The notes under the pieces are model-generated. The model was not told the DNA's origin and ran no database searches. It saw only the letters and a list, made by a program, of their open reading frames with translations. A program made the position numbers and the translations under genes. A stretch of DNA of 64,000 nt from an uncultured Verrucomicrobiae bacterium (lineage in GTDB: Bacteria > Verrucomicrobiota > Verrucomicrobiia > Chthoniobacterales > UBA10450), in contig CAVVOH010000003.1 in the NCBI GenBank assembly GCA_963749935.1, positions 492,153 to 556,152 of the forward strand. The letters are read 5' to 3'. Positions 1,716-55,855 of the stretch are shown here, piece by piece. How positions within the stretch are numbered: position 1 is the stretch's first letter; each line of letters begins with the position of its first letter.

Positions 1716-2282
1716 ATGAACGACGACTTGTTGGCTTTGTTCCGCCAAACGGGCGCGCTGCTCGACGGGCACTTTGTCCTGCGTTCCGGCCTGCATAGCC
1801 GCCAATTTTTCCAATGCGCGCTGCTGCTGCAGCACACCGAAATCGCCGCCCAGGTTTGCGGACAGCTCGCCGACAAACTGCGCGACTTCGAGTGCGATGC
1901 GGTCATCTCCCCCGCTCTGGGTGGAATCGTTGTCGGGCAGGAAGTCGGGCGCTCGTTGGGCAAACGTCACATCTTTGCCGAAAAGGAGGCGGGCGGCCTG
2001 GTCCTGCGGCGCGGTTTCCAGATCGCGCCTAACGAGCGCTTCGTCGTCGCCGAGGACGTAGTGACGCGCGGCGGTCGGGTCCAGGAAACGATCGAGATCG
2101 TGCGTCAGCACGGCGGCCAGGTGGTCGGGATCGGCGTGATCGTCGATCGCAGCGGCGGCCAGCGCCCTGATCTTGGCTGCCCTTTCGTTAGTCTGATCGA
2201 GCTACAAGTGGAAACCTTTCCTGCTGACCAAATCCCAGCCGACCTCGTCTCGATCCTGGCTGTTAAACCTGGTAGCAGCTAA
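1716..2282 (+). CDS. pyrE: Orotate phosphoribosyltransferase
   Basis: 188-aa ORF. N-terminus GHFVLRSGLHSRQFFQC and PRPP-binding loop RFVVAEDVVTRGGRVQE are typical of PyrE. Confidence 0.9.
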   Translation: MNDDLLALFRQTGALLDGHFVLRSGLHSRQFFQCALLLQHTEIAAQVCGQLADKLRDFECDAVISPALGGIVVGQEVGRSLGKRHIFAEKEAGGLVLRRGFQIAPNERFVVAEDVVTRGGRVQETIEIVRQHGGQVVGIGVIVDRSGGQRPDLGCPFVSLIELQVETFPADQIPADLVSILAVKPGSS

Positions 2283-2938
2283 CGTCCGGTGCGCGCCCAA
2301 GGCGCGGCATCAATGCACTGTATCAACTCGTCTGAGACCCATCCGTATAGCGAGAGCTTGGACTCGCTGAAGCGAGTCCATCCGGAGGGACATGCTTCCG
2401 CATGTCTAGTTTTTGCCCGGCCGGTCTCGCTTTCGATGATAGGCTGCACTGGGGGCCTGTATCACTTGAAAGGTGAGTAGCGACAATGCCATCTGATGAT
2501 CATACTTTGTAAAGCATGACAGAGGAGAGACCGTCCATGAAATTGGAGGCCACGTGCTCACGTGGTCCATGATACAGGGCACCAGTGCAATGACGAAGTT
2601 ACTGGGGGGCGTTGAATCGGGGTTTATCCTCGTCGCTACCAGGCTGCGCGGTAGTGTTCTTTACTCCCAAAAAAAGACCAGACTTAGGGAGGGATACATC
2701 CTTTCTACATTTCTACCGAAGTGATTTCTCATTCAAAGCACATTTCAGCCTCGTCTTTTGGCCGTAGGAGAAAGTGCATTGCATGCCAGTTATCGCTTCA
2801 CGGGGTTCGGCCGCAGGACGGTAATGGCGCCGGAGAATTTGTGATCATCGCAAAAAAGAAAGGACGTTACCGGCCGGATCCAAATTTAGCTTGTGCCCCC
2901 GCTGATAACGCGGAGAGATTATCGCTATCGCCCTGCAA

Positions 2939-3874
2939 ATGGAAGACCAAGCCGCAATTCACACGAAGATCGCCCAAAAATGGGACGGGGTGGCACGACT
3001 GCGAGGAACAAACTGGTGGCAAACGCCGTTAGTACGACAGCACATCAACCGGCTCGTTGCTAGCCAACCATGCGGCACTGGGATTTCCGCTGGAACTATT
3101 TCATTTTTGAAAGAGCTTGCTAAAGGAAGAGTCTTTCAACGGGCGGTCAGCGTCGGTGCGGGGTCTGGAGTAAAAGAGATGCTCCTTCTTCGCAACGGGC
3201 TTGTGCAAGAGATGGATCTCTTCGAACTCTCCCCCAAGAGAATCGAGGAAGGTCAGAAAAAAGCCGCCGAATTAGGCTTCGCCGAACGCATTCACTTTCA
3301 TTCGACCGATGCTTTCGAAAGCCTGCCGAATGCGTCCGTCGATCTTGTCTACTGGAACAACTCCCTACATCACATGTTTGATGTCGATGCTGCCGTGACC
3401 TGGAGTCACGATGTCCTTCAAACCGGCGGACTGTTCTATATGGATGATTTCGTGGGACCCAACCGCCGTCAGTGGTCGGAAAAGGCTTTGACCATCGGAT
3501 CGCGTATTCGCAGCCTGTTGCCGGAACGTTATCTTAAAGCCCCTCAGGCCCTAAACGCACCTCCTAACAAATCAGTCCTACCGCGCACTCTGGTTCGGGA
3601 AGATCCGGAACGAATCGCCACCGCAGATCCTTCGGAAGCGGTCGACTCGGAACGAATCCTCGCAGCAATCAAACGGGAATTTCCCGAGGCGATCATTCGC
3701 CCCACCGGAGGAGTCGTCTACCACATGACGCTGGTCGGGATGCTACAAAATTTCGACTCGACGGACGACCGCGACATTGCGCTACTGGAGTCCCTCCTCC
3801 TGCTCGATGAGCTTTGCATCGAAGTGCCCGGTCTCGAGACGCACTACTGCGTCGCCGCAGCCTGGAAGACCTGA
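2939..3874 (+). CDS. Class I SAM-dependent methyltransferase
   Basis: 311-aa ORF. Motif I VSVGAGSGVKE, acidic loop MDLFELS, then HFHSTDAF...VDLVYWNNSLHHM...GGLFYMDDF. Convergent with the giant glycosyltransferase frame. Confidence 0.8.
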   Translation: MEDQAAIHTKIAQKWDGVARLRGTNWWQTPLVRQHINRLVASQPCGTGISAGTISFLKELAKGRVFQRAVSVGAGSGVKEMLLLRNGLVQEMDLFELSPKRIEEGQKKAAELGFAERIHFHSTDAFESLPNASVDLVYWNNSLHHMFDVDAAVTWSHDVLQTGGLFYMDDFVGPNRRQWSEKALTIGSRIRSLLPERYLKAPQALNAPPNKSVLPRTLVREDPERIATADPSEAVDSERILAAIKREFPEAIIRPTGGVVYHMTLVGMLQNFDSTDDRDIALLESLLLLDELCIEVPGLETHYCVAAAWKT

Positions 3875-6800
3875 TTCGTCGCTGGCGCAGTCCATATCTG
3901 GTCAGGGCGCCGCAGCCGCGATCTCGCGCGGAGTACCTGACAGACTCCGACGAGACATCCCGCGTCGGCCCTTCTTCCAGAACCGACCGGACAGCTCGCC
4001 GCGTCCAATCCGCCGCAGCGATTCGACAGTAAATTGCCAAAGCCTGACCCAACGTCCGGGCGCCAAAATTACGCATGAAAATCTTCAAGCCATGCGCAGT
4101 GAGACGCGTGGCGGTTGCCACATCCTGGGTAAGGGCCTCGACCTGAGATCTCACTTCCCCAAAATCGTTCCAAGACACGTGTCTGCTAAATCGCGCTGGT
4201 TCTGGATCGAGCCGATCGAAAATCTGATTCGAAAGCACGGGAATCTTCATTGCCAGGGCCATGGGCAGCGCGGAATATCCAGACCTCTCAGACTCACCGC
4301 GCCAAAAGAGATACGCGTCCGCAGGCGGGACCGAGGGGGGGTATGGCAGGGTGGAATTATCCAGCACCTCCTGAAGCGAAAGAACCGTGCTTAGTAGGAC
4401 GACCCGCATTTGGCGCCCAGGGAGCCCTTCGATGTTGCGCCGAATTTCGTGCGCTTCAGCTTCCGTTAGTTCGTAGTCATCCAACCAAAGAGAAAGGTGC
4501 GCGTTTTTCGAACGCTCGGCGAGATCCTGCCTAACGATCCTCTCGTCCCAAACCGGATTAAGACGGAAGCCCCCGCTCTCACCGGGATCCCACGGGCGAA
4601 CGATTTGATAACGTGCTGGCGATGCCTCCCATCTCTCGTTCGCAGCCAAAGTTCGGTTTGCATTGTCTACCACAATTGCAGCTTCGATCCGACCCTGCAG
4701 CTCACGAACCAGCCGCACCGTGAAATCATCGCACCCCATGTAGAGCAAGACGTCTGTCGAAGCCTCTTGCCCCTGGGCTCGGTTTTCATCACCTAACGAA
4801 ACCTCCACTCCGGGAAACATGCCTGCAAACGAGTCGAGGCTGGATCCCCCAAATATTGTCATTCTGAGTTTGCAGTAACGGGCCAGCGCACGAACCATCG
4901 GAGCGAAACTTGGAGTGCGAATGGCCTTCGCATGCACAACCACCTTCACGTTAAGATCTCGCTGCGCCGGCAAAGCCGTACTCAGTTTCGCCTCAGTCGC
5001 ATAAAGGCGGTCGATATTCCCCTTAACGATCAGACGAGGACCACTGCGATGCTCATGGAGGACGGTGAGCTGACCCCAATTCGAGTTCCGACGGTAGACG
5101 ACGAGGAATTGATCCACATAGAGAGGGTCTCCGTAAAAAGAATAGCGAACCACCAGATCCCAATCTTGCAACCGAACAAGGCTTTCCGTGAAGCCTCCCA
5201 GCTCTCGATACAACTCAATTCGGTGCGCGAAGCCGTTCAGATCGACAAAGTTTTTTGAACTCAACCGCTGATAGTCGAATGGCACATCGCGATAAGTCGC
5301 TAATCGATACCTCCCTTTCCCGTCTACCTTGGTATCCAAGTATCGGCAATAGACTGAAAACCTGTCCGGGCGCGCCATTAACTGCCCCACCATCGTCAAG
5401 AGATAATCCGGATGCCAGATATTGTCGGTGTCAAGGTAGGCGATGAAGCGGCCGGAAGCCCTGGCCAGACCCTGATTGCGCGCCGCGGCGGCCCCGCCAT
5501 GGACCAACTTATGAAACTTGATCCGCGAATCTCCCACGGCGGTCACGACTGACTCTGTGTCGTCTTCGCTCCCATCATCGCAAACATGCAACTCCCAGTT
5601 ACGCCAACTCTGAGTTAGCACGCTGCTCATTGCTTCCTGGATGAGTTCCGCGCGATTGTAAGTCGGCATGATAATCGAGACAAGTGGTTCGTCCCTCTCC
5701 CCGGCGGGGGTGCCGTCACAGATGTGAGATTCGCTCGCTCGCAGGGCGGACCAAAAGGTCGCGTCCAGAGTCGCGGCAAGCTCCTCTCGAATGATCCGGT
5801 GGAAAGGCGACTGCCGCTGCGCGTGCCACAAAGTCCGGTCGCGGGCGTCGAACTGGACAATCCACTCCTGCGCGGCAAGGATCGGCCGGAGCCACGCGCG
5901 CCAGGATGAGATCGAGCGAACATGAAACGGAACCCATGCGCCACTTTCATCCTTCAGCTCGAATGCGATCTGGTTTCGGAAGAAAGGCATCCTGGCGGTG
6001 ATCTCAAATCCGCTTTGCAAGGCTTCATTCCTGTCTGGAAAAGCTTTCGCTACATCAAGTCGCTCGAGACCGTAAGTTCCCTCGTAGATGGCACCGCCAT
6101 GCCGAAGACGAACGCCCAAGGCTTTTCCAATGGCCGGGAAGCACCAGCCGCGGATATGAACCTCTGAAACATTGTTCAGCCAGACGGCAGGATGATTGAA
6201 CGAATATCTGACCGTTTTACTCGACCATTTCCCGGTAATATCCAGTTTGATCCGCTCCGGTCGACGCACGGCGGCCGTGCCGCCTTGCGCGCTCCCTCGT
6301 CGTACTTTTGTGGCCTGAGCCGATCCACGGGCGTTCTTGTTCACCAGCCGGGAAATGGTATGGATGATTTGCCGCGCGCGCCGATCGAAGGTGTGTTGGC
6401 CTGAAACCTTGCTGCGCAGCGCTTCCCCTTTGCGCAGCCGCTCGTCATCGTGGAGCAGATAATATTCCACTATCTCCCGCAGTTCAGCCTGCGTCCGATA
6501 AGTCTGCACGCAACCGTCAAACACCTCGTCCATGCCTGCGGCTTGGTCCGAAACGATGAAGGCCCCGCAGGCGCCGGCATCGAAGAGTCGATTGGATAGG
6601 AAGCCGCTCTTGGCCATTGTTTCCCAATGGTCGTTGAAGAGAATCTTGCAGCCACTGTAGTAGTGACGCAAAACGTTATTGTCTATATGCAGCCCCTTAA
6701 GATGATCGGGCTGAAGAAAATCTTCCCAAAGCGACCCATAGACCGCCAATGGTAGGCCGGCTGCAATCGCATCTCTCACAATCGGCCGAAAAACCTTCCT

Positions 6801-7856
6801 TGAGTTCCCCACAAACAAAAGGGGATCGACTTGAAGATCCGTTCGGCGTTCGAAATAAAAAACCTCGGGATCTGTACACTGTAACAACGCACTCACGTTC
6901 GCTCCAAGGCGCACGGCGAGTTCCTGGGCAAAGGAGTGTGAGGCGACAAAAACGTGATCAAAGTCTTCATACTCCCCCGGCGCTACCCGGTCGGGATGAC
7001 TGATATTCCACATTAGATTGAGGTGTCGGGGATTCGGTTTGTATCTATGCCGTCCTCTCAAGGTCAGGGTAACATCGTCTCCTGAATCCGATTCGCGCCC
7101 CCATTCGGGATTCATATCGATCCGGCAGGAATGGCCCAAGCGATTGAACGCCCGTTGCAGGGCGAGCGCAAAATGGTGGTCCCCCCAGGCGGGCGCTTCC
7201 TGCGTGTTCGGTACGCTCGTTTTGATCGAGATAGTAAGGCGGTCCAAATCCGGAGGCTGCGAGGAAGCGTTGTCGCGTTGTGACTGGAGAATCAACGGCG
7301 CATCGGTATCACCACCTTCGCTGGAAATCGAAAAGCTAGCGGGGAATTGAACCGGGAGCGGACTTCTTAGCGAGGTGCTACCTGACGACAAGGCGACCAA
7401 CTCTGCGGCGCTTCGCTTTTGCCGGTCGAGGTCCTTGATCCTTGCCATCAGCTCCTTAGCCCGGTGAGCAAAGGTATGTGCGGCGAGAACCCGGGATTGC
7501 ATTCGCTCCGCCCGAACGCACCGTTCCGCAGGACGGGCTAAGTAATAGCGCACTTTCTCCTGAAAATCAGATTCGCTCTGGTAGGTCACCAAATCCTCAC
7601 CAAAGACCTCCGCGCCGCCATCGATTTGATCGGAAAGAACGAAAGCTCCAGCCGCCGCCGCATCGAAGAGTCGATTGGAAAGGAAGCCACACTCGCGCAT
7701 GGATGGCCAGTGATCGTTCACCAGAATCCTGCATCGACTATAGGTACTGACGCAGCACCGAGTTATCGATGTATTCGCCGCGGATGTAATCGACTGGGAT
7801 AAAGCTTCCCCAATCTTTTCCGTACACGCCAATCGGCATTTCAGCCGCCACGGCAT
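3693..7856 (-). CDS. Giant glycan-synthesis protein, ORF piece 3 of 3: end of the second and the complete third CgeB-like glycosyltransferase module, a GT2 (GT-A) domain, and a ~550-aa C-terminal region of unknown function
   Basis: 1387-aa ORF. Homologous coding begins near 7743, where YSRCRILVNDHWPSMRECGFLSNRLFDAAAAGAFVLSDQ continues ORF 7738-8997 after a 1-nt frame break. Internal paralogous module: YSGCKILFNDHWETMAKSGFLSNRLFDAGACGAFIVSDQ. GT2 signature: VSIIMPTYNRAELIQEAMSSVLTQSW...LHVCDDGSEDDT...YLDTDN. The last ~60 codons (3693-3874) are Arg/Ser-rich and overlap the methyltransferase 3' end, so the true stop is uncertain. Confidence 0.8.
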   Translation of the reverse strand: MPWRLKCRLACTEKIGEALSQSITSAANTSITRCCVSTYSRCRILVNDHWPSMRECGFLSNRLFDAAAAGAFVLSDQIDGGAEVFGEDLVTYQSESDFQEKVRYYLARPAERCVRAERMQSRVLAAHTFAHRAKELMARIKDLDRQKRSAAELVALSSGSTSLRSPLPVQFPASFSISSEGGDTDAPLILQSQRDNASSQPPDLDRLTISIKTSVPNTQEAPAWGDHHFALALQRAFNRLGHSCRIDMNPEWGRESDSGDDVTLTLRGRHRYKPNPRHLNLMWNISHPDRVAPGEYEDFDHVFVASHSFAQELAVRLGANVSALLQCTDPEVFYFERRTDLQVDPLLFVGNSRKVFRPIVRDAIAAGLPLAVYGSLWEDFLQPDHLKGLHIDNNVLRHYYSGCKILFNDHWETMAKSGFLSNRLFDAGACGAFIVSDQAAGMDEVFDGCVQTYRTQAELREIVEYYLLHDDERLRKGEALRSKVSGQHTFDRRARQIIHTISRLVNKNARGSAQATKVRRGSAQGGTAAVRRPERIKLDITGKWSSKTVRYSFNHPAVWLNNVSEVHIRGWCFPAIGKALGVRLRHGGAIYEGTYGLERLDVAKAFPDRNEALQSGFEITARMPFFRNQIAFELKDESGAWVPFHVRSISSWRAWLRPILAAQEWIVQFDARDRTLWHAQRQSPFHRIIREELAATLDATFWSALRASESHICDGTPAGERDEPLVSIIMPTYNRAELIQEAMSSVLTQSWRNWELHVCDDGSEDDTESVVTAVGDSRIKFHKLVHGGAAAARNQGLARASGRFIAYLDTDNIWHPDYLLTMVGQLMARPDRFSVYCRYLDTKVDGKGRYRLATYRDVPFDYQRLSSKNFVDLNGFAHRIELYRELGGFTESLVRLQDWDLVVRYSFYGDPLYVDQFLVVYRRNSNWGQLTVLHEHRSGPRLIVKGNIDRLYATEAKLSTALPAQRDLNVKVVVHAKAIRTPSFAPMVRALARYCKLRMTIFGGSSLDSFAGMFPGVEVSLGDENRAQGQEASTDVLLYMGCDDFTVRLVRELQGRIEAAIVVDNANRTLAANERWEASPARYQIVRPWDPGESGGFRLNPVWDERIVRQDLAERSKNAHLSLWLDDYELTEAEAHEIRRNIEGLPGRQMRVVLLSTVLSLQEVLDNSTLPYPPSVPPADAYLFWRGESERSGYSALPMALAMKIPVLSNQIFDRLDPEPARFSRHVSWNDFGEVRSQVEALTQDVATATRLTAHGLKIFMRNFGARTLGQALAIYCRIAAADWTRRAVRSVLEEGPTRDVSSESVRYSARDRGCGALTRYGLRQRRIRSSRLRRRSSASRDRALRCKAHRAGGGTPVAQCRGRPSSRNFVASRPASCGRRLLRWGE

Positions 7857-8997
7857 AGCGCACAGCCTCCCGATATTGCTTACGGGAGTTACCTACAAAA
7901 AGAATCTCCTCAGACAGCACGTCCGGATTCGGATCGGAAAAAAAGATGCGCGGATCAGTGCATTGCAAGAGGACACTTACAGAAGTTCGGAGACGTTGCG
8001 CGAGGGTCGTAGCATGCGATTCCGATGCGACAAAGACGTGGTCAAACTCGTTATACTCCTCGTCTTCAATCCGGTCCGGATGACTGATATTCCAGATGAG
8101 GTTTACCTGTCCTGGCTGCGGACGATATCGACTCAGTCCGCGCAGACTAATCGCAACGTCATCGCCAAACGACTGCGGCCGATGCCACTCATCAAGACAG
8201 TCGATACGAAACGAGTGGCCAAGGGCGGCCAGGTGTCGGCCGAGGGAACAAGCGAAGTGATAGTCACCCCAATGCTTCATTTCGCTGCGACTGGGCGCGC
8301 CTATCTTGAGGCCGATCCGATACCCCTCCCGCGCGTGAGCGATCAGAATGCGTTTCAAAGTGCGAGCTCGCGCCTGATAAGTGTGATGGGTTAGAACGCG
8401 CTGGCGCAATTGCTCCAGCAGAACCCTTCGGGCCGTCTCATCGCTCAGGTAACGCTCCAAAAGGGATTGGAGCTCCTCCGGAGAACGGTAAGCAGGCAAT
8501 TCGCCTTCGAAAATTTCCGCGGCACCAATAGAATTATTGGTAATGACCAAAGCGCCGGCGACGAGGGCATCAAAGACCCGCGAGTTCACTGAGCCCCAGT
8601 CTTTCGTCACGTGATTCGCGTCGTCGATCACCACTCTGGTAGAGGCATAAACCGTTGGCATCTCCGCGTACAGGTAGAGGGCCTCGCGCGTAACTCCGCA
8701 GCCGAGGATGCGTCTCCCAACCTTTACCGAAGACAGCGAAGTTGTAACTTTCGAGCTGTTGGGGCTGGAGTGCGTGGCCAATTTCGCGATCGAATTGCCA
8801 GTAGTTTCCCGTGAAACAATAGTCCGAATTGAGCCGCGCGTCGGCAAGGCCTGCGCTGAATCGCGCGGGATTGGTTGCCAACGGAAAGATCTGGGCAGGC
8901 TTATGATGCACCTCCCGCAGCCACTGCGCCGACCTGGCTGATGAGCAGAGAAAGAGATCATACTCATCAAAGTCCGGCCGGGCTGCCCAGCGCTCAA
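7738..8997 (-). CDS. Giant glycan-synthesis protein, ORF piece 2 of 3: C-terminal half of the first and most of the second CgeB-like glycosyltransferase module
   Basis: 419-aa ORF. The homologous part starts near 8671 (YAEMPTVYASTRVVIDDANHVTKDWGSVNSRVFDALVAGALVITNN) and continues ...FGKGWETHPRLRSYARGPLP of ORF 8570-11911. The first ~110 codons of the listed ORF are an out-of-frame overlap. It ends VLRQYL*, where paralogous modules continue YYSxC(K/R)IL. Confidence 0.75.
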   Translation of the reverse strand: MSAGQPGRTLMSMISFSAHQPGRRSGCGRCIISLPRSFRWQPIPRDSAQALPTRGSIRTIVSRETTGNSIAKLATHSSPNSSKVTTSLSSVKVGRRILGCGVTREALYLYAEMPTVYASTRVVIDDANHVTKDWGSVNSRVFDALVAGALVITNNSIGAAEIFEGELPAYRSPEELQSLLERYLSDETARRVLLEQLRQRVLTHHTYQARARTLKRILIAHAREGYRIGLKIGAPSRSEMKHWGDYHFACSLGRHLAALGHSFRIDCLDEWHRPQSFGDDVAISLRGLSRYRPQPGQVNLIWNISHPDRIEDEEYNEFDHVFVASESHATTLAQRLRTSVSVLLQCTDPRIFFSDPNPDVLSEEILFVGNSRKQYREAVRYAVAAEMPIGVYGKDWGSFIPVDYIRGEYIDNSVLRQYL

Positions 8998-11764
8998 ACC
9001 AATTACGCAACCAGGCTACTTTTAGCAGATAAGGTTTCGCATCGCGAATCTGGGAAGGCTCATAGGAGTCGAGAAGAACAACCAGGACGTCCACATCCTT
9101 GAGGTCGTACCAGTCTTCATTACGGGCCAGATATCGAATCGTCCAACCAAACTCCCGCGCACAGGCTTCCCCCAGTTCCGAAGCGCTGAAGAAATCGCCT
9201 GCCGCTGCGTCCGGCCCAACCTCGGTAACGGCGAAGGCTACCGTAAATGGAGACTCCGAGAAAAAGAGCCCGTTCGACATCTTATCGATCAGAAAGTTTC
9301 GTCGCAGATACCACCCGTGGCGGTGGAGGAAGTAACTGATGTTATCCCGTCGCCGATCCGCGATGACCTGTTGGCTCTGGTGCTGGCCGCTGGCGCTTTT
9401 GTGGTGAATACCAACGAGATGATTCGCCGAGGCCGAATGCAGACCCATTCGACGTCGAAGAGAAAGCGCCAGATCCACATCCTCGTAGCCGTAAACGTAA
9501 TCTTCACAAAAGCCGCCCACCGCCAGGAAATCCCGCCGCCGGCAGCTTGCCAGAGCGAGATTAACCGCGGGAAACTTCTCCAACAACGGGGGAGTATCAG
9601 TGAGGAGAGAAGACGCGCCTAGATTAAATGGCCGGTGGAAGAAAGAAGGCGGATCCCGTCGGAATTTCACTCCGGCGTGTCGGATCCCGCCGGGAAAATT
9701 GGGTGAATCATCAGGATAGACGAGGCGAAGTCCCACCAGCCCAATGCGTTCATACTCCAGGCAGCGAAGGAGATCGGGCATAACGTCGCTCCGGAAGGTG
9801 ATGTTGCTGTTTACAAAGACGAGATAGTCGGCGTCGGTCTGGTCAGCAGCACGATTGTTGGACTGCGCGAAAGAATGGGTATCCGGGTAGTCATTTACAC
9901 TTATAGGAAGACGATCTTTGAATTCGGCAATGACGTCGCGGCTGTCATCGGTGCAAGCGTGCAGGACGACGCGAAACTCTGTGCTAGGGTGGGTATTGAA
10001 CCTGAGGAACGAGTCAAAGAGATTGCGGAGATTATCTTCGCCCGCATGATGCACGACGATGCAGCAGGCCTTCGCCGACGCGGGAAAAACGCCTGCCGGA
10101 ATCGCCACCGCGTGTTTCTCCGCGGCGGCCTTGCGCATAGTCATGGCTCGGATGATCCGCGCCGGGTCTGGTTCAGCGGACTCCTCCTCCGAGCGCGACA
10201 ACTGAGCTGAACTCGACCTGGGGGCCGGATTGGCACTGGGCGCCTTGAGAGGAGTGGTCCTTTTTGCCTTTGCCCGCTTGAGGTCTTTGCGCGTTTTGGA
10301 AAAGAGGTTTCGAATTTCTTCGACATGATGCCGTGGGCGCCGGCTAACGAGACCCAGCCGGCGAGCGGTGTAGACGATAAAGTGAAAGGCACGCGATTCG
10401 CGCAGTTTGCGAAAATGATCTTCCACGGTGTCGAGCGCCTCCTTCAGAAGACGCCTTTCGGCAGTCATTTCCTCCCTCTGGCGACGCTCGTTCGTTAACT
10501 CGGCATCACGGCGCGCTACAGTCTGCTGGAAAGCGACGATCCGAGCGCTGCTACTCCGGAGGCGGCTCTGGAGGTCATCGACCTTGTCACTCAGCGCGCG
10601 GACGCGAATCTCCCGCGCGGCCAGTTCTTTATCCATGCGTTGGATCTGGCGATTAGTGGCATCGGCCTTCGCCGCCTGATGGAGAGCCTTTATCTCCCGT
10701 CGCACCGTCTCCTGCACTAATCGGGCGATCGCGGCATTTTTCTTCACTTCTTCCCGGGCTGTCCGGAGCGACCCGGATATCTCTGTCAGCTTCTCACGCG
10801 CTGCCTCCACCTCTTCGCGCAGCCGCTTCGTGTCCAAACCGACCAGCTCAGCCCTGCTTTTCCAGACGGCGACACCCGCCTCCCGTTCTTCTGCCCTGGC
10901 CTTCCAGGCCGCAACTTCCGCTTCCCGCTTCTTGACTAGGGCATACTGACGTTCCAGCTCCAGTCCTTGGTCGTGCTGCGCGAGTAACTCTTCCGCTAAA
11001 GCGGAGCATCGAATCGCTTTTGTCATGCTCAGCGCGTTCTTCTTTTCAAACCGCAGCCGAAGCTTCCGTTGCGCCGGACTTAGCTTCGCCGTTATCCCCT
11101 TTTCCTTCGCCCGGTATAACGCTGGATCGATGAACGAAAGGATCTCCTCCGCGGAGGGCAAACGAAGACCCCGCACCCCAGCCGCTTCCAGTTCTTCCAG
11201 CAGTGCCTGCATCGCCGAAACCGGTTCGGATAAAAGCTGAGGATGATTTACCTGGATGCGCTTCCGCTTCAGCGTGGCGTTAAGCGCCGAAGTACTGTAG
11301 CGCTCCCAGAGGGCGAGCCCGAAAGCGATCGAAAATTGGTTCCGCATCTGCAGAGAGCGCGCTACTTCCAGGGGCGACCGATAAACGAAGACGCAGACCG
11401 GGAATTCCAAAAGCTCCAACCAAAGCGGCGCCAGCACGCAGAGACGGGGTTCCTTGATGAACCAGGGCCGATGCGAATCCAGCTGATGAATGATTTGAGC
11501 GGCTTCGCTTTTGAATTGCTCGAGCGTCGCGACCGGGACTCGATCGAGGGAAAACCGGCTCAGTTCATCCCAATCTGCGCCGGCTGCACGCAGCACCATG
11601 TTATTCAAATTGCGCACATCGCGCCGCTCCCAAAAGCCCTTCGGATTCTCCGCGTTAGCCCCGTTAGAAACACCTTCGGGCGCGAAATAGGCGCCCATCA
11701 TATTTAAAAGGCGCGCCGCCAGCGAGGTGCCGGAGCGGTGCATTCCGAGGACAAGAATCTGCAT
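8570..11764 (-). CDS. Giant glycan-synthesis protein, ORF piece 1 of 3: N-terminal sulfotransferase domain, ~190-aa coiled coil, GT2 domain, first CgeB-like module
   Basis: Start placed at MQILVLGMHRSGTSLAARLLN (sulfotransferase PAPS-binding loop at the N-terminus) rather than at the Arg-rich upstream ATG at 11911. Heptad-rich stretch EAEVAAWKARAEEREAG...DKVDDLQSRLRSS...LKEALDTVEDHFRKLRE at about 10380-10950. GT2-like CCIVVHHAGEDNL...DADYLVFVNSN. The frame breaks near 8671. Confidence 0.8.
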   Translation of the reverse strand: MQILVLGMHRSGTSLAARLLNMMGAYFAPEGVSNGANAENPKGFWERRDVRNLNNMVLRAAGADWDELSRFSLDRVPVATLEQFKSEAAQIIHQLDSHRPWFIKEPRLCVLAPLWLELLEFPVCVFVYRSPLEVARSLQMRNQFSIAFGLALWERYSTSALNATLKRKRIQVNHPQLLSEPVSAMQALLEELEAAGVRGLRLPSAEEILSFIDPALYRAKEKGITAKLSPAQRKLRLRFEKKNALSMTKAIRCSALAEELLAQHDQGLELERQYALVKKREAEVAAWKARAEEREAGVAVWKSRAELVGLDTKRLREEVEAAREKLTEISGSLRTAREEVKKNAAIARLVQETVRREIKALHQAAKADATNRQIQRMDKELAAREIRVRALSDKVDDLQSRLRSSSARIVAFQQTVARRDAELTNERRQREEMTAERRLLKEALDTVEDHFRKLRESRAFHFIVYTARRLGLVSRRPRHHVEEIRNLFSKTRKDLKRAKAKRTTPLKAPSANPAPRSSSAQLSRSEEESAEPDPARIIRAMTMRKAAAEKHAVAIPAGVFPASAKACCIVVHHAGEDNLRNLFDSFLRFNTHPSTEFRVVLHACTDDSRDVIAEFKDRLPISVNDYPDTHSFAQSNNRAADQTDADYLVFVNSNITFRSDVMPDLLRCLEYERIGLVGLRLVYPDDSPNFPGGIRHAGVKFRRDPPSFFHRPFNLGASSLLTDTPPLLEKFPAVNLALASCRRRDFLAVGGFCEDYVYGYEDVDLALSLRRRMGLHSASANHLVGIHHKSASGQHQSQQVIADRRRDNISYFLHRHGWYLRRNFLIDKMSNGLFFSESPFTVAFAVTEVGPDAAAGDFFSASELGEACAREFGWTIRYLARNEDWYDLKDVDVLVVLLDSYEPSQIRDAKPYLLKVAWLRNWFERWAARPDFDEYDLFLCSSARSAQWLREVHHKPAQIFPLATNPARFSAGLADARLNSDYCFTGNYWQFDREIGHALQPQQLESYNFAVFGKGWETHPRLRSYARGPLPVRGDANGLCLYQSGDRRRESRDERLGLSELAGL

Positions 11765-11898
11765 GAGCCAGGATAGTGCTTTTACAGCTACGCTCCCGAG
11801 GCTGGAAAGCAACTCTGCGCTCGACCTACCGCAAGCCTGCTGGTTCGAGAAGCCGCGCGCGCGGCGCCTCCGGCGACAGCCCCTCCGCCCCGAGATTC

Positions 11899-11940
11899 GG
11901 ATCGATTCCACGCCTCGTCGCGAGTATTCAGCAGAATTGA
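11899..11940 (+). pseudogene. Relic of the last ~13 codons plus stop of a fourth fibre-gene paralog
   Basis: Own translation ...GSIPRLVASIQQN* resembles the C-termini of the three fibre genes (PIPLLTSIEQN*, APRTVANNP*, VPLTVASTR*). It is followed at the same 7-nt offset by the ccgcggatttcgcgg repeat that follows fibre gene 1. Confidence 0.35.
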
Positions 11941-12212
11941 GTTAAACCGCGGATTTCGCGGATCACACGGATAGCTGAACCAGGGCACCGGCGAACTCTG
12001 ATCCGTTAAATCCTTGTCATCCGTGGTCTAAATCCAAGTGTGTCCGCGCCGCGCGGGACTCGTTTTTGGTCCTTGACAGCTTCCGGGGCTTTCCCAGAGT
12101 CGATCTGCAGAATGAGCTAAAGCGGGCACTGAAGTTTACCTCCCCGGTGGCTTTCTGTTTCCGTTTCAGTCTTCACTTCCATCAACCAGAACCGGGAGAA
12201 AAGGAGATCCGT
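11941..12212 (+). repeat. Conserved inter-paralog module, copy A: ccgcggatttcgcgg hairpin repeat, cttgaca promoter-like box and a long conserved 5' leader of fibre gene 1
   Basis: Aligns by eye with 13640-13924. Shared blocks: ccgcggatttcgcggat(c/g)acacggata, catccgtggtc(t/c)aaatccaagtg, cttgacagc, gaagtttacctccc, ccatcaaccagaaccggga.aaa.ggagatcc.tATG. Its 3' half also aligns with 15841-15986. Confidence 0.75.
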
Positions 12213-13639
12213 ATGTTTCATTTGATTCATTTTATCAAGAACGTGCCGCGCCCGTCACTTTGCCATAATGGTGCTTCGTTTTCCCGGCTCGCGCTGTGCC
12301 TCGTTTGCCTGTTTTTTTTGCCGGCAGCATGGGCCGTCGATCCCCCACCGGATGGCGGCTATCCAAACGGTAACACGGCCGAGGGCGATGATGCGCTCTT
12401 CAGCCTTACTAACGACGGCCTTTGGAACACTGCGGTTGGCTTTCAAGCGCTCTACAGCAACACCAATGGCATCCGGAACACCGCCGTCGGATATATCTCT
12501 TTTTTCTTCGAATGGCCACGCCAACACTGCGATTGGTTTCGGAAGCCTCTCCAGTAATTTGGGCGGCTTCAGCAATACCGCCACTGGTGAAGGGGCGCTC
12601 GGCCTGAATACACTCGGCGCCTATAATACAGCCACCGGTGTGGGGGCGCTCAGAAATAACACAACCGCACTTCACAATACTGCCCATGGGTATTGGGCGC
12701 TCTACAACAACACGACGGGAGCGGACAACCCTGCCAACGGCTACGAAGCACTACTTCAATCTTACCGGCGCATCGAACACCGCCACCGGCTGGCGCGCCC
12801 TCTTCAAACTGGTGATCGCCGGCGGCCTGGTTTCCTTAAACAAAGCCAGTAACAATACTGCAAATGGTTACTGGGCTCTCAACAACAACACGACCGGCCA
12901 TGACAACACCGCCGTCGGCTACTCGGCCCTCTTCAATAACACCACCGGCTCCAACAATATAGCCATCGGCCCTTCCGCTGGCACCAATCTCACGACCGGG
13001 AGCAACAACATCTACATCGGCGCTTATGGCAGCGCGAGCGATTCCAGCGCGATTCGCACTGGCCGCACCGGGCTCCAGACCAGTGCCTACATCACCGGCA
13101 TCCATGGCACGACCGTAGCCGCGGGAATGGCCGTGATGGTCGATTCGAGCGGCCACCTCGGCACTCTTACTTCCTCCGCTCGTTACAAGAAGGCGATCCA
13201 ACCGCTGGATCAGGCGAGCGAAACGATCCTTGATCTGCAGCCGGTCACCTTCCGTTACAAAGAAGAGATCGATCCCGAGGGCATCCCGCAGTTCGGCCTC
13301 GTCGCCGAGGAAGTCGAGAAGGTCAACCCCGATCTCGTTGCGCGCGACGAACAAGGCAAACCTTACACCGTTCGCTACGAAGCGGTCAACGCCATGCTCC
13401 TTAATGAGTTCCTTAAAGCCCATCGTAAAATAACCGAGCAGGAGAGGACGATCAGCCAGCTAGGCTCTACCATCGCCGCCCAAGAGATGGAATTTCGAGC
13501 GACGGTCGCGGGCCTGGATAAGGAGAGGGCCTCTCTCGGCCAAACGCTTAAAAAGCAGGCGGTCCAACTCCAAAAAATAGACGCCCAACTGGGAACTAAC
13601 CGCCCAATTCCCCTTCTCACGAGCATCGAACAGAATTGA
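12213..13639 (+). pseudogene. Surface fibre / tail-fibre-like protein, paralog 1: signal peptide, NTAxG-type ~14-residue repeats, C-terminal intramolecular-chaperone auto-processing (Peptidase S74-like) domain and coiled-coil tail; at least 2 frame breaks
   Basis: Pieces lie in three frames (ORFs 12066-12557, 12268-12852, 12638-13639): MFHLIHF...LPAAWAVDPPPDGGYPNGNTAEGDDALFSL; NTAIGFGSLSSN...NTATGEGALGLN; NNTTGHDNTAVGYSALFNNTTGSNNIAIG...GHLGTLTSSARYKKAIQPLDQASETILDLQPVTFRYKEEIDPEGIPQFGLVAEEVEKVNPDLVARDEQGKPYTVRYEAVNAMLLNEF. Confidence 0.8.
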
Positions 13640-13924
13640 GCTGGACCGCGGATTTCGCGGATGACACGGATAAAACTCCGATCCGGTAAATGCGCTCGCC
13701 AAGGCGTAGCCCGTCCAAGGAGAAGACGAGTCATCCGTGGTCCAAATCCAAGTGCGGCCCGCGCCTCACATTTCCCCTTTGCTGCTTGACAGCATGCGGG
13801 GCTTTCCCCAACGTCGATTTACAGAATAAAGCTAGCATGGCCCCGAAGTTTACCTCCCGGTGCTTCTGTTTCCCGCTTTAGATCGTTATTCCATCAACCA
13901 GAACCGGGAAAAAGGGAGATCCAT
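13640..13924 (+). repeat. Conserved inter-paralog module, copy B (hairpin repeat, promoter-like box, 5' leader of fibre gene 2)
   Basis: See copy A. Begins 7 nt after the stop of fibre gene 1 with ccgcggatttcgcggatgacacggataaa and ends at ggagatccatATG. Confidence 0.75.
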
Positions 13925-15338
13925 ATGTTTACTCGACTCAATCCAGCAATCGCTATTTTACGGCCGTTTCTTCGGCGAACTGGCATTCCGTTGACCAGGC
14001 TCGCTTTGGGCCTCGGTTTGTCTAACCTTTTTGCCCGCAGCCTAGGCGGTCAACCCGCCGCCCGACGGCGGCTACCCCAACCTCAACACGGCAGGGGGGG
14101 AAGACGCTCTTTTCAGCCTGACCATCGGCGCGGGCAATACGGGTGTGGGTTATCATGCGCTCTTTAGCAACACCTCCGGCGACGACAATACCGCCGTTGG
14201 TTTTTCGGCGCTCGACAAGAACAAGACCGGTATTAGTAACACCGCCATTGGTGTTCAGGCACTGCGCGACAACACGGCGTCTAGCAATACGGCCATTGGC
14301 TTTCTTACCCTCTCGAGCAACACGACCGGGAGTTTTAATACGGCTACCGGTGGTTCTGCGCTCGCCTCAAACACAACCGGGTTCAACAACACGGCCAACG
14401 GTACTGCTGCCCTCCTCCAGAACTCCACTGGCTTCGATAACACAGCGATCGGGTATAAAGCCCTTTATTCCAACTCGAGCGGAAGTAGAAACACCGCTTT
14501 AGGTTATGACACGCTCCATTTTAACACCACCGGCACAAACAATACCGCCACCGGCTGGCGTGCCCTCTACAAGAACACCGCTTGCAACAATTCAGCCACT
14601 GGTTACTGGGCGCTGGATAACAACACCACCGGTCATGACAATACCGCCATGGGTTACGCTGCCCTCTTCAACAACACTACCGGTTCCAACAATATCGCCG
14701 TCGGTCCTTCCGCTGGCACCAACCTCACTACCGGGAGCAACAACATCGATATCGGCGCTTTCGGTGGCGGCGGCGATTCGAATACCATCCGCATAGGCCG
14801 CAACGGCCTCCATACCAATGCCTACATCACGGACATCCATGGCACGACCGTACCCGCGGGAGTAGCCGTGATGGTTGACTCAGCCGGCCACCTCGGCACC
14901 ATGACTTCCTCCGCCCGCTACAAGGAGGCGATCGAGCCGATGGACCAGGCCAGCCAATCCATTCTTGATCTCCAGCCGGTCACTTTCCACTATAAAAAAG
15001 AGTTCGACCCCGACGGTCTTCCGCAATTCGGCCTCGTCGCAGAAGAGGTCGAGAAGGTCGCACCCAACCTGGTCGCACGGGACGAGGCGGGTGAACCCTA
15101 TTCGGTTCGCTACGACGCGGTCAACGCGATGCTGCTTAACGAGTTCATTAAGTATCATCGTCAACTGGCGGAACAGGGGCGGAGAGCTGCAGACCAGGAA
15201 GCGACCATTGCGCGGCAGCAAAAGGAGATCGCTGCCTTGACCGCTGCCCTGAAGTCCCAGGCGGCCCAAATCCAGCAGGTCAGTGATCGATTGGAAGCGG
15301 CTCGGATGGCCCCCCGGACGGTCGCGAACAATCCATAG
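13925..15338 (+). pseudogene. Surface fibre / tail-fibre-like protein, paralog 2 (S74-type C-terminal auto-processing domain); one frame break near 14046, just after the signal peptide
   Basis: MFTRLNPAIAILRPF...LALGLGLSNLFARSLG (ORF 13925-14167) joins VNPPPDGGYPNLNTAGGEDALFSLTIGAGNTGVGYHALFSNTSG... (frame of ORF 14145-15338). C-terminal part: GHLGTMTSSARYKEAIEPMDQASQSILDLQPVTFHYKKEFDPDGLPQFGLVAEEVEKVAPNLVARDEAGEPYSVRYDAVNAMLLNEF, then a coiled coil. Confidence 0.85.
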
Positions 15339-15438
15339 GGGCCTGAGGCTTCGGGACGGCTTCTCAAGGACGAATCTTCCCGGTCGAGTTCACGATCTGC
15401 CGGCATCGGAGAGTCGTGCTCACCTGGCGCGCGCGACG

Positions 15439-15565
15439 CTTACATTCTTGACTCCATTGGCGCGCCTTCTAAATTTCAGCCATCTCCCCGTCCGGCACGC
15501 CCCGGCGGCGGATATCAATTTCCTGAGACCAACATCGCTGCCTTTCACCGTTCATCCGTCGGTCG
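15439..15565 (+). repeat. Decayed duplicate of the sdhC promoter and first ~13 codons (direct repeat partner of 17676-17793)
   Basis: cttacattcttgactccattggcgcgcc...cctgagaccaacatcgctgcctttcaccgttcatccgtcggtcg versus cttgcattcttgactccgttgacgcgcc...cctgtgaccaacatcgctgcctttcaccgctcatccgtcggccg. The GTG start is mutated to GAG in this copy. Confidence 0.8.
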
Positions 15566-15840
15566 CAGGCTCGCTCCGCTGCGCAGTGGCAGCGGAATGA
15601 TCAAAAAAATCTTGAAGTGCACGTTACGCGGCGCTTAAGACCCCGAGAGCTTTCGGGGCAGCTGGACGGGCCGCGGAGCGGAACATCTCTCCAACTAGCC
15701 GCCTTCAGAGCAATCAAGCCGACTGGAGCACTGGTGGCAAAAAACCGCTTTAAGCAAAATTAAAAAAACCCGGTTGTCCTTTCATCCCCTCGACCGCCCC
15801 AACTGACAAAACACTACCCCGTCTCGCAGGGTTCACTTTT

Positions 15841-15986
15841 CTGCTTGACGGGCGCCGCGGATTTTTCGGACGCTGTCCTTTGCATGGTGAACTGAATCGG
15901 ACATCGGAGTATCTCTCCCGGCTGCTTCTCTTTCCGCTTCAGGGTCAATTCCAACAATTGTGACCGGGAGCAGAAAGAAGGTATCT
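15841..15986 (+). repeat. Conserved promoter/5' leader module, copy C (upstream of fibre gene 3)
   Basis: ctgcttgac..., ctcccggctgcttctctttccgcttca and attccaacaattgtgaccgggagcagaaagaaggtatctGTG align with the 3' halves of copies A and B. Confidence 0.55.
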
Positions 15987-17578
15987 GTGTTTGCTTCGCT
16001 TCCACGTATTAAACTCCTCTAGCTCATCCCGAATTCGGTTCCGTCCATATCTTGGCGGAGCCGCACTTTTCCTCCTGCCGTAGCGCTCGCTCTTGTCACT
16101 TTGTCGCTTTTGCCCAGCGCGCAGGCGGTCATCCCGCCACCGGAGGGAGGCTATCCCGGCAACAACACGGCGTTGGGAACGGACGCGCTCTTCAGCCTTA
16201 CTATCGGCACCGGCACCACGGCCATCGGTTTTCAGGCTCTGTTTAGCGCTACTGGCGGATACAACACAGCTGTCGGATCTCAGGCGCTCTATAGAAACAC
16301 TGGTAGCGGCAACACAGCCGTGGGTACAGCAGGCGCTCTTTGGCAACACGACCGGCTTCGGCAACACGGCCAACGGTTCTTTTGCGCTCTATCGCAACAC
16401 CACCGGCAGCAGCAACACTGCCGCCGGATTTGGGGCACTTGAACTCAACACCACCGGCAGCAACAACACGGCCGCCGGTTATGGGGCACTTGACGTCAAC
16501 ACCTCCGGTAGCAACAACACTGCCGCCGGTTTCGAAGCGCTCGTCCACAGCGGCACCGGCAGCAACAACACGGCGAACGGTTCTTTTGCACTTCAAAACA
16601 ACACCACTGGGAGTATCAGCACGGCCGAAGGTTTCGAAGCGCTCTACAGCAGCTCGACCGGCGGCGGCAACGTGGCCAATGGTTATCAGGCGCTCCGTTT
16701 TAACACGACCGGGAGTAGCAACACGGCGAACGGTTGGTGCGCCCTATACAAAAACACCAGCGCGAGCAATAATACCGCCGACGGTTATTGGGCCCTGAAT
16801 AATAACACCACCGGCCACGACAACACGGCCCTCGGTTACTCCGCCCTCTTCAACAACACCATCGGGAGCAACAACATTGCGCTGGGTCCCTCGGCCGGCA
16901 CCAATCTCACCACCGGGAGCAACAATATCGACATTGGCGCGCTCGGCGGCGCCGGGGAATCTAACACCATTCGCATCGGCCGCTCAGGCTTTCAGACCAA
17001 CGCCTATATCACCGGCATCAGCGGCGTGACGGTGGCCGGAGGCGTGAGCGTAATCGTGGATGCCAATGGCCATCTTGGCACCCTCAATTCCTCGGCCCGT
17101 TACAAAGAGGCGATCCAACCGATGGACAAGACGAGCGAAGCCATTCTGGCCCTTAAGCCGGTCACCTTCCGCTATAAGGAGGAGCTGGATGCGGCAGGTA
17201 TTCCGCAGTTCGGTCTCGTCGCCGAAGAGGTGGCTAAGGTCGATCCCACTCTGGTGCACGCGATGAAGAAAGCCTTACACCGGTACGCTACGAAGCGGTG
17301 AACGCGATGTTGCTAAACGAGTTCTCAAAACGCATCGCAAAGTGGAGGAACACGAGAGAAAAGTCGCAGTCCAAGAACGCAATTTGGACGAACAGAATAG
17401 CGCGCTCGCCCAAGTAAAGACAGTCATTGCCAAACAGGAAGGCATCATTGCGCAACAGCAAAAGGAAATTGCCGGCCTTACGGCGAGTCTAAAAGCACAC
17501 GCTTCTCGCATCCAGCAGGTAAGCGAACAACTGGCCGCGAGCCGATCCGTTCCCCTAACCGTCGCGAGCACTCGGTAG
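15987..17578 (+). pseudogene. Surface fibre / tail-fibre-like protein, paralog 3 (S74-type C-terminal domain); about 4 frame breaks (~16015, ~16330, ~17255, ~17320)
   Basis: GTG start at the position homologous to paralogs 1 and 2. LVTLSLLPSAQAVIPPPEGGYPGNNTALGTDALFSLTIGTGTTAIGFQAL (ORF 16101-16442). NTTGSSNTAAGFGALELNTTGSNNTAAGYGALDVNTSG...GHLGTLNSSARYKEAIQPMDKTSEAILALKPVTFRYKEELDAAGIPQFGLVAEEVAKVDP (ORF 16093-17301). Coiled-coil tail in ORF 17342-17578. Confidence 0.8.
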
Positions 17579-42280: not shown

Positions 42281-42312
<32 letters not shown>

Positions 42313-42830
42313 CGGCGTTGTCCTGCAATGTAACAATTACGAGGTCATCGACCTCGGGGTGATGGTGCCGGCGGAGAAAATCCTCCAGACCGCCCGGGAG
42401 AAGCAGGCAGACATCATCGGCCTGAGTGGACTGATTACGCCGTCGCTCGACGAGATGGTGCATGTCGCGCAGGAAATGGAGCGACAGGAATTTCGATTGC
42501 CGCTCCTGATCGGCGGCGCGACCACCAGCCGCGCGCACACCGCGGTGAAGATCGCGCAGCATTATGGCGAGAGCGTGGTCCACGTGCTCGACGCCTCGCG
42601 CGCGGTCGGCGTGGTCAATTCGCTCTTAAACTCGGAAGCGAAGTTGAAGTTCGACGCGACCACGCGTGCGGATTACGAGCGACTGCGGACCGAACACGCC
42701 GATAAAACGCGAGAAAAGAAAATGCTTACCCTCGAGCAGGCACGGGCGAAGCGCCTCGCGATCGACTGGAGCAGTTACGAGCCACCCGTTCCCGAATTTC
42801 TGGGAGTGCGCAGTGTGGCGACAGCTCCGA

Positions 42831-42876
42831 GGAGCGCACGCGCCTCGCGTGCAGTTTTCGGCGCCTCGCCGAAAAC
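42831..42876. repeat. Left terminal inverted repeat / REP-like double hairpin
   Basis: ggagcgcacgcgcctcgcgtgcagttttcggcgcctcgccgaaaac. Internal hairpins gcacgcg-cct-cgcgtgc and ttttcggcg-cct-cgccgaaaa. Confidence 0.75.
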
Positions 42877-43358: not shown

Positions 43359-43404
43359 CTTTTCGGCGAGGCGCCGAAAAGAACACGCGAGGCGCGGGTG
43401 CTCC
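43359..43404. repeat. Right terminal inverted repeat / REP-like double hairpin
   Basis: cttttcggcgaggcgccgaaaagaacacgcgaggcgcgggtgctcc. Its reverse complement matches the left repeat at about 40 of 46 positions (hand count). Confidence 0.75.
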
Positions 43405-55761: not shown

Positions 55762-55855
55762 AATGATCCCCACTCAACCGTCCTCCTTCAGCCTTGACTC
55801 TATCAGCCTCCTGTCTTTCTCCTTTAGCCTTCCGACTTTCTACTTTCTTTAATCC

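Follow-up and report, generated by a model that had tools for sequence, protein, structure and literature searches.

A giant sulfotransferase–spacer–glycosyltransferase locus in an uncultured Verrucomicrobiae bacterium is most likely a single gene with a predicted role in glycan assembly

Do three overlapping open reading frames (ORFs) on one strand of a Verrucomicrobiae contig represent one gene or three, and what might their product make? The ORFs, at 8570-11911, 7738-8997 and 3693-7856 on the minus strand, lie in a 64,000-nucleotide (nt) stretch of contig CAVVOH010000003.1, which we call the window. An initial annotation of this DNA proposed that the three form one frame interrupted by single-nt breaks near 8671 and 7743, and that the product is a glycan polymerase carrying its own chain terminator and chain-length ruler. 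We find that the locus is most likely one gene encoding a multi-module glycan-assembly enzyme of ~2,580-2,690 residues, in which a predicted sulfotransferase and a long helical spacer precede a series of glycosyltransferase (GT) modules. The fuller proposal, that one gene broken by errors specifies a polymerase that carries its own spacer as ruler and its own terminator adding sulfate, is the best-supported reading, and we would give it about an even chance.

Dropping a single base at each of the positions 8671 and 7743 yields an open frame of 2,689 codons that runs from the ATG at 11764, the same start that the gene caller chose in the source record (P0240), to the stop at 3693; residue numbers below refer to this repaired protein. 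Translation in all frames around the ORF overlaps located where the homologous reading changes frame, and this frame repair bears out both break positions that had been proposed. At break 1 (8671..8671, minus strand), where the minus-strand DNA reads ..CCT CTA CCT GTA CGC GGA GAT G.., the extra base is inside or adjoins the GTAC at 8668-8671. Its removal joins RGPLP to YAEMPTVYAST and restores GPLPYAEMPTVYAST, as in homologs, which have GFLPYAEMPNVYAST at this join. At break 2 (7743..7743, minus strand), within ..CAG TAC CTA TAG TCG.., the extra base adjoins the GTAC at 7744-7747; here the repair joins NSVLRQY to YSRCRILVNDHW and restores NSVLRQYYSRCRILVNDHW, again as in homologs, where the sequence is NSVLRQ(Y/H)YSR.TILLNDHW.

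The closest database proteins, P0001-P0004 (2,966, 1,594, 1,569 and 1,481 amino acids [aa], respectively, from Verrucomicrobiota and metagenomes), are uninterrupted over both joins, their best local alignments showing 53-54% identity, and a 500-residue query over both joins matched P0244 and P0246 with 69% identity and 100% coverage. Two one-base repairs and uninterrupted homologs at 53-69% identity thus support reading the three ORFs as one frame. Both breaks fall inside conserved Glyco_trans_1_2 cores, which excludes positions between modules. Two other explanations were rejected. Programmed frameshifting is not favored, since neither site has a slippery sequence and a one-base drop by GTAC restores the exact homolog peptide. 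Three naturally split genes would not be expected to part inside Glyco_trans_1_2 cores; in L005, a Chthoniobacterales relative in which the same modules are divided into genes of 930 and 541 aa, the real gene boundary is between modules.

If the locus is one gene, how did the breaks arise? They are probably one-base insertion errors at GTAC motifs, in a Chthoniobacterales-like (Verrucomicrobiota) genome put together from error-prone reads, and not genuine stops. The alternative is that the frameshifts are genuine and that the locus is a recently inactivated pseudogene or a set of three leftover fragments, which we consider improbable. It is true that the deposited assembly contains the breaks and that its gene caller gave separate products of 1,064 and 1,387 aa. 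However, genes elsewhere in the window carry similar breaks. In the replicative helicase, the DnaB_C domain is divided over two frames, the transketolase frame is broken near 36140 and that of the metH activation domain near 43755, the DUF2891 gene has three breaks within 700 nt, and the E1-beta subunit is broken near 25660, at the GTAC at 25657. An organism cannot have lost genes as essential as dnaB and tkt. Frame breaks are common throughout the window; the positions noted are the GTAC sites 8668, 7744, 11292, 25657 and 3933, and also 36140, 43755, 51440-51660, 33815 and 34085.

A second assembly of the same sample, the Logan contigs of run ERR11593400, covers window positions 8673-15529 (L085) and 2133-3935 (L084). 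L085 differs from the window at three indel positions and has zero substitutions over 6.9 kb; one of these indels disrupts the sulfotransferase domain in L085, where the window copy is intact. That two assemblies of one run differ by indels argues against genuine inactivation, as does the presence of GTAC at both breaks. GTAC occurs only 37 times in the 64 kb, and both breaks, the indel difference at 11295 and the points at which the two Logan contigs end (8673 and 3935) are within 5 nt of it. The E1-beta break is likewise a few bases from a GTAC. We estimate that a given site would lie ≤4 nt from GTAC by chance in ~0.7% of cases. The remaining breaks are at G4/C4 runs or in a GATC cluster. 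The pattern probably reflects systematic base-calling error at a motif that is presumably methylated. A crude test of how often GTAC sites join ORFs gave 8 of 37, versus 17% of random positions, and missed the site at 8671. No independent contig over the breaks was found, as the Logan contigs stop at 8673 and 3935 and an exact-protein look-up of P0121 gave none. A further homolog search returned no near-identical protein spanning the joins, and a plasmid search with the region gave no match.

Sequence conservation provides a further view of whether the gene has decayed. The repaired protein retains 92% of the columns at which four homologs agree, and the intact protein P0004 retains 91% in the same test. 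Since it preserves such columns to the extent that an intact relative does, we regard the gene as not decayed. The pseudogene explanation also has to contend with breaks in mid-core of Glyco_trans_1_2, where the natural boundary in L005 lies between modules. In its favor are the C-terminal tail, which resembles read-through (see below), and the first of two GT2 (GT-A fold) modules, GT2a (residues 561-830; 9275..10084, minus strand), which is degenerate looking and matches Pfam Glycos_transf_2 with 26.3 bits. Although GT2a passes the Pfam fold assignment, the metal-binding Asp motif is absent: it reads LNSN (N654), where 71 of 73 homologs have Asp (LNND or LNSD). The AAC codon of N654 is identical in L085. 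Changes at columns conserved in the four homologs number 14/66 in GT2a versus 16/311 elsewhere (Fisher p = 1e-4), an excess that P0004 does not show, and its database relatives keep the Asp. Outside GT2a, conserved positions are retained as in the intact homolog. From its sequence, GT2a is probably an inactive pseudo-enzyme in this lineage; this apparent degeneracy is a point added by the present analysis. Of the two GT2 domains that had been proposed, both stand as Pfam assignments, and the first, which lacks its key Asp, is probably inactive.

What kind of enzyme would the single gene specify? The N-terminal domain (residues 1-250; 11015..11764, minus strand) has the fold and motifs of sulfotransferases that use 3'-phosphoadenosine 5'-phosphosulfate (PAPS). 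It matches Pfam Sulfotransfer_3 (PF13469) with 28.8 bits (E 1.8e-6; cut-off 27). In the AlphaFold2 (AF2) model, the predicted local distance difference test score (pLDDT) over residues 1-290 is mostly >95, falling to 82-87 at residues 31-50 and 211-230, and the top Foldseek matches in the PDB are the CurM sulfotransferase (ST; 4gbm), TPST (3ap1) and the mycobacterial Stf9 and Stf1, all with probability 1.00. Across 29 sequences there is no variation in GMHRSGTS (7-14), KEPR (104-107), R129 or S137, so that the 5'-phosphosulfate-binding loop, the 3'-phosphate R...S motif and the sulfotransferase fold that mark PF13469 are all present. A gene for adenosine 5'-phosphosulfate (APS) kinase is beside the homologs in L001 and near homologs in four more loci. 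The assignment as a sulfotransferase, made earlier from the sequence, is confirmed by fold and motifs, which are of the PAPS type; PAPS transfer activity is predicted.

Following this domain is a long helical, coiled-coil-like spacer (residues 255-456; 10397..11002, minus strand), recognized by composition, heptad signal and predicted helices. Pro and Gly number ≤2 per 28-residue window over residues 253-462 and are lacking (zero) from residue 337 on, 54-71% of residues are charged, Gln or Ala, and the heptad a/d signal reaches 0.7. AF2 places helices at 255-361 and 371-456, and there is a weak SMC_prok_B match over residues 240-457. The region thus behaves as the coiled coil that had been proposed and not as disordered low-complexity sequence. 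Among homologs, the spacer is 206-324 residues long. After the spacer comes a conserved basic helical segment (residues 457-501, SRAFHFIVYTARRLGLVSRRPR; 10262..10396, minus strand), with AF2 helices at 458-469 and 477-501 and no Pfam match. The segment 455-560 is common to 21 of the fetched proteins, and an SRxFHF motif is at the expected position in the 10 homologs that carry both markers. This helix is a candidate docking element for the membrane or a partner. A linker (residues 502-560) leads to GT2a.

Downstream of GT2a are three CgeB-like modules of the GT-B fold. Module 1 (residues 835-1145; 8329..9262, minus strand) holds break 1, matches Glyco_trans_1_2 at 9e-21 in the 419-aa ORF and is 70% identical to P0002 and P0230 over 311 residues. 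Module 2 (residues 1146-1450; 7413..8328, minus strand) holds break 2, has its Glyco_trans_1_2 half in the 1,387-aa ORF and is 69-70% identical to P0244, P0208 and P0246. Module 3 (residues 1505-1810; 6333..7250, minus strand) contains the best Glyco_trans_1_2 stretch of the 1,387-aa ORF (359-498) and is 57% identical to P0122; Glyco_trans_1_2 (PF13524) as a whole matches this ORF in two stretches at 4.6e-45. The internal paralogy that had been noted for these modules is borne out, as they are 25.5-50% identical in pairs: modules 2 and 3 at 50% (E 1.6e-108), modules 1 and 2 at 25.5% (E 3e-20) and modules 1 and 3 at 27% (E 7.5e-16). Consistent with membership in PF13524, whose profile covers a C-terminal Rossmann half that follows an N-terminal one, each ~305-residue module aligns end to end with stand-alone proteins of two modules and has profile matches.

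Between modules 2 and 3 is a Ser/Pro-rich linker of 54 residues (1451-1504; 7251..7412, minus strand) that joins a P0004-like N-terminal half to a P0122-like C-terminal half. Residues 1-1450 correspond to the complete proteins P0002-P0004, which have the same domains, are 54-59% identical and end at the linker; residues 1505-2583 correspond to stand-alone P0122 (1,170 aa; 39% identity), whose alignment begins at residue 1505. No single protein with both halves was among those retrieved, and in P0001, also a very long fusion, different modules follow the second CgeB-like module. Because the frame is open and unchanged across the linker, with the other two frames full of stops, an artificial fusion of the halves by error is unlikely. 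As far as the assembly goes, the fusion is real. The added C-terminal half, with module 3 and the second GT2 module, may compensate for GT2a.

This half continues with a beta-rich domain (residues 1830-1965; 5868..6275, minus strand), for which AF2 predicts strands at low confidence (pLDDT 45-63); it has no Pfam match even at E = 10 and occurs twice in P0122. The second GT2 module, GT2b (GT-A fold; residues 2020-2240; 5043..5705, minus strand), matches Glycos_transf_2 with 97.9 bits and has intact GT2 motifs (IIMPTYNR, DDGSEDDT and DTD). By sequence it matches chondroitin polymerase K4CP (2.5e-21) and SpsA in the PDB, and its model, a confident GT-A fold (pLDDT mostly 80-94) that also matches SpsA and K4CP, gives Foldseek template modeling (TM) scores of 0.7-0.9 to GT-A enzymes. 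A C-terminal alpha/beta domain follows (residues 2241-2583; 4014..5042, minus strand), with alternating strands and helices in the AF2 model (pLDDT 30-83) and no Pfam match at E = 10. Among 1.84 billion representatives, a search with this domain found only itself and one 172-aa fragment; its alignment to the last part of P0122 is weak, and P0122 ends where residue ~2583 would be. The Foldseek matches of the C-terminal model, which is of low confidence, are driven by its GT2 part. The last 106 residues (2584-2689; 3693..4013, minus strand, including the stop) form an unconserved Arg-rich tail to which no homolog aligns and which shares 182 nt with the convergent methyltransferase gene. Logan contig L084 ends at 3935, beside the GTAC at 3933. 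The tail is possibly read-through from a third indel at this GTAC; we conjecture that removing one base would bring the stop to near 3899 and abolish the overlap. The ~550 unassigned C-terminal residues of the initial annotation are actually ~345 conserved residues and this unconserved tail. Its domain order is otherwise upheld.

How might such an enzyme work? Most likely, judging by analogy, the three CgeB-like GT-B modules and GT2b would lengthen a lipid-linked glycan on the cytoplasmic side of the membrane, with GT2a probably idle. Once the chain was long enough to span the spacer, the sulfotransferase would sulfate its non-reducing end, and the terminal sulfate would both stop growth and mark the chain. 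The conserved neighboring methyltransferase would add O-methyl groups. We infer the cap, the function as ruler, a lipid-linked acceptor and the route of export by analogy with characterized terminator–coiled-coil–polymerase systems, which the window protein resembles in layout. Two architectural features of those systems are present: a terminating-type enzyme distal to an extended coiled coil (the fold of residues 1-250 and the helices 255-361 and 371-456) and polymerizing GT modules in the same chain (three Glyco_trans_1_2 domains and the intact GT2 after the spacer).

A close parallel in layout is WbbB of Klebsiella pneumoniae O12 and Raoultella terrigena, in which an N-terminal terminator, a coiled coil and C-terminal polymerizing GTs are in one chain (PMC11231755). 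The window protein has the same order of enzyme, ~200 helical residues and GT modules. The WbbB terminator, however, is a beta-Kdo glycosyltransferase and not a sulfotransferase fold, WbbB has two GT modules where the window protein has five or six, Wzm and Wzt are encoded nearby for WbbB and not in the window, and the two proteins share no detectable sequence similarity. ORF6 of Klebsiella O7, a 1,414-aa protein, consists of a methyltransferase-kinase, a carbohydrate-binding module, a coiled coil and two GT2 modules (PMC11231755). Here the likeness extends to a terminator that transfers a small group instead of being a GT, followed in one polypeptide by a coiled coil and GT2 modules, with other modules supplying further GT activities; the window protein too has a beta-rich domain without assignment. 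It differs in that the cap would be sulfate rather than methyl-phosphate, in that it is nearly twice as long and in that its GTs are mostly CgeB-like GT-B modules. Module shuffling between chains, as described for Klebsiella O-antigen enzymes (PMC11231755), matches the mosaic seen here. In the WbdD/WbdA system of E. coli O9a, terminator and polymerase are separate. WbdD is a kinase and methyltransferase with a proven ruler function, a role that the window spacer can be given by analogy, and no sequence homology to it was found. Its layout is matched by stand-alone sulfotransferase–spacer relatives of 543-689 aa, and the conserved helix after the spacer could serve as the membrane or recruitment region does in WbdD. 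The occurrence of stand-alone and fused forms in one class thus mirrors WbdD and WbbB.

Does the class to which the window protein belongs bear out a link with glycan export? A first homolog search returned 197 proteins at E ≤ 1e-10, and among the 120 matches listed most carry Sulfotransfer_3 with GT domains and are 1,500-2,966 aa long. The sulfotransferase–coiled-coil(–GT) architecture is therefore not unique: databases contain hundreds of such proteins, and the class is common and uncharacterized. The closest relatives are from Chthoniobacterales and Verrucomicrobiae genomes. In 83 related loci from species-representative genomes, sulfotransferase-first proteins range from ~250-690 aa, with the enzyme alone or with a spacer, up to 2,966 aa. 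The 543-689-aa sulfotransferase–spacer proteins are found in Lysobacter and Luteimonas, and sit beside wzt there and in Pseudoxanthomonas. A Wzt-type ATPase is within 10 kb in ~22 of the 83 loci, including all nine Lysobacter, Luteimonas, Pseudoxanthomonas and Novilysobacter genomes, and in five loci (L014, L015, L019, L022 and L037) the sulfotransferase gene follows immediately on the end of the ATPase gene. Three of the ATPases tested (L020, L022 and L037) have a Wzt_C domain, which in characterized systems binds the chain cap (PMC11231755). These neighbors support the terminator–ruler–polymerase analogy for the class as a whole.

The main rival is that the enzyme is intact and that its sulfotransferase decorates along the polymer, or acts on another acceptor, with the helices serving in oligomerization or as a scaffold and the product leaving by another export route. 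The product would then be a surface polysaccharide or glycoconjugate bearing sulfate and methyl groups, with a set of Wza/Wzc/Wzy-type genes 42 kb away as a candidate route. We think this rather unlikely, though several observations favor it. There is no ABC (ATP-binding cassette) transporter in the window or beside Verrucomicrobiota relatives, a cluster encoding Poly_export, GNVR and Wzy_C domains is present at 53.4-60.2 kb, and known PF13469 members such as NodH modify substrates and do not terminate chains. Moreover, the membrane-anchored GT2s and DUF7657 proteins of relatives suggest extra-cytoplasmic steps. Against along-chain sulfation, the order of enzyme, long spacer and GT modules and the variable length of the spacer are hallmarks of terminators, Wzt with Wzt_C adjoins relatives, and the Wza/Wzc cluster is distant, with housekeeping genes between.

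Loci of relatives encode a second Sulfotransfer_3–GT2–GT4 protein of 1,119 aa (L005 4542-7901, minus strand), a DUF7657/DUF7654 protein of 932 aa (L005 14502-17300, plus strand) and membrane-anchored GT2s (GT2_TM_C; L001 21991-23175), which hint at further extra-cytoplasmic glycosylation steps in Verrucomicrobiota versions of the system. In the window, the Wzx/Wzy-type polysaccharide export cluster (53445-60193, plus strand), 42 kb from the giant gene, encodes a beta-barrel porin-like protein, a Wza-like Poly_export/SLBB protein, a Wzc-like Wzz/GNVR protein that seems to be spread over two frames, and an O-antigen ligase/polymerase-like protein with Wzy_C. NodH has been placed in PF13469 (PMC11625862). 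NodH and other PF13469 enzymes, TPST and the CurM ST share with the window protein the family or fold, a PRSGT-like loop and an R-x7-S motif; they differ in being single-domain, substrate-decorating enzymes, and none of them was found fused to a coiled coil and GT modules in the searchable literature.

It is also conceivable that the enzyme glycosylates proteins, for example three Peptidase_S74 fibre proteins rich in N-x-T repeats, and that there is no lipid-linked polymer, which we judge very unlikely. The three fibre genes (12066-17301) share an intergenic region with the giant gene, the same arrangement is found in the second assembly, and the enzyme after which the GT-B modules are named, CgeB, has proteins of the spore surface as its targets. 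However, homologs of the fibre proteins are in 0 of the 83 related loci, so this adjacency is not conserved, and the relatives associate instead with Wzt transporters and methyltransferases. The fibre genes are on the plus strand, divergent from the giant gene, and encode three paralogous fibre-like proteins with many N-T-A/N-N-T-T-G repeats, a C-terminal Peptidase_S74 domain (an intramolecular chaperone) and a coiled tail; at least the first and third appear frameshifted.

Several points weigh against the main reading. Reads were unavailable, so the error origin of the breaks is inferred, and decay might be starting in GT2a, where the catalytic Asp is lost. Sulfate might be added at sites along the chain and not to its end. 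AF2 places a low-confidence break in the spacer at 362-370, so the two helices might double back and halve its length. Structures of WbdD and WbbB are in the PDB; a phmmer search of all PDB chains with the N-terminal 1,064 residues gave no match at E ≤ 0.01, and the resemblance to these proteins is one of layout, not descent. Finally, no sugar-nucleotide or transporter genes lie between secA and sdhCAB, where the giant gene is located. No ABC ATPase motif or Wzm/Wzt was found within the window, which covers 64 kb of the 654,687-bp source contig; the initial annotation had noted no transporter gene next to the giant gene. A nearby Wzt is present in 0 of 13 Verrucomicrobiota loci, and Wzt with Wzt_C is seen in the more distant relatives L020, L022 and L037. 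The analogy with WbdD and WbbB drawn in the initial annotation holds for the layout and for wzt beside relatives; the cap and ruler roles are predicted by analogy.

Is a sulfate terminator new? We found no description of a sulfotransferase terminator, or of this fusion, in the searchable literature, which leaves out most subscription journals. The suggestion that the combination had not been described therefore holds for the class and not for this gene alone, and the combination is not rare in databases. In Aeromonas salmonicida, a small gene that resembles sulfotransferases and lies between wzt and wbbB has been reported without a function (PMC4483657). We raise, tentatively and with the chances somewhat against it, the idea that, in ABC-transporter-dependent glycan synthesis, sulfate is one more type of cap that ends the chain and licenses its export, the fourth or fifth, besides methyl, methyl-phosphate and beta-Kdo, and is added by a large sulfotransferase–coiled-coil family that crosses phyla (Xanthomonadales, large sulfur bacteria, Actinomycetota, Planctomycetota and Verrucomicrobiota). 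If sulfate does cap glycans, it would be a new chemical "stop and export" signal in a well-studied pathway, would explain sulfotransferase-like genes in O-antigen clusters such as that of Aeromonas salmonicida (PMC4483657) and would offer a marker in the genome by which to recognize sulfated surface polysaccharides in many uncultured bacteria from soil and sediment. The window gene would then be the most elaborate Verrucomicrobiota member retrieved and one of the longest overall (P0001 has 2,966 aa), with a cap, a ruler and a heteropolymer synthase of four to five modules in one chain and one GT module a pseudo-enzyme. Within its class the gene is not exceptional, and every functional step is a prediction; what sets it apart is its length, the third CgeB-like module, the rare C-terminal domain and the degenerate GT2.

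In the window, the giant gene sits between secA with a phosphoribosyltransferase gene on one side and the three fibre-protein genes, followed by sdhCAB, on the other. Its third-position GC content is 0.60-0.64, versus 0.73-0.78 in housekeeping genes of the window, as would fit an island acquired between secA and sdhCAB. The convergent gene (2939..3874, plus strand) encodes a 311-aa S-adenosylmethionine-dependent methyltransferase that matches Pfam Methyltransf_31, _11 and _25. The link that had been suggested between this gene and the giant enzyme gains support from orthologs, at 42-45% identity, just downstream of the two closest homologs (L002 and L001/L018).

The errors described above also have a practical consequence. 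Indel errors tied to motifs break up large genes in this assembly. Gene calls in assemblies of this kind under-report giant multi-domain enzymes, and those across the whole of this one are best treated as fragmented. Two further genes of the window deserve mention. A PAPS-independent arylsulfotransferase (ASST; Pfam E 2.4e-36) is encoded at 29813-31915 on the plus strand, 18 kb from the giant gene, to which it is probably unrelated. The metH ORF (40460-43777, plus strand) is apparently divided after the homocysteine-binding domain by a TGA-CA-ATG stop-start near 41012-41020. Between its B12-binding and activation domains it has an insert of ~290 residues with an in-frame Pfam match (window 42938-43205; E 1.3e-6) to the IS200-like Y1 transposase family PF01797.

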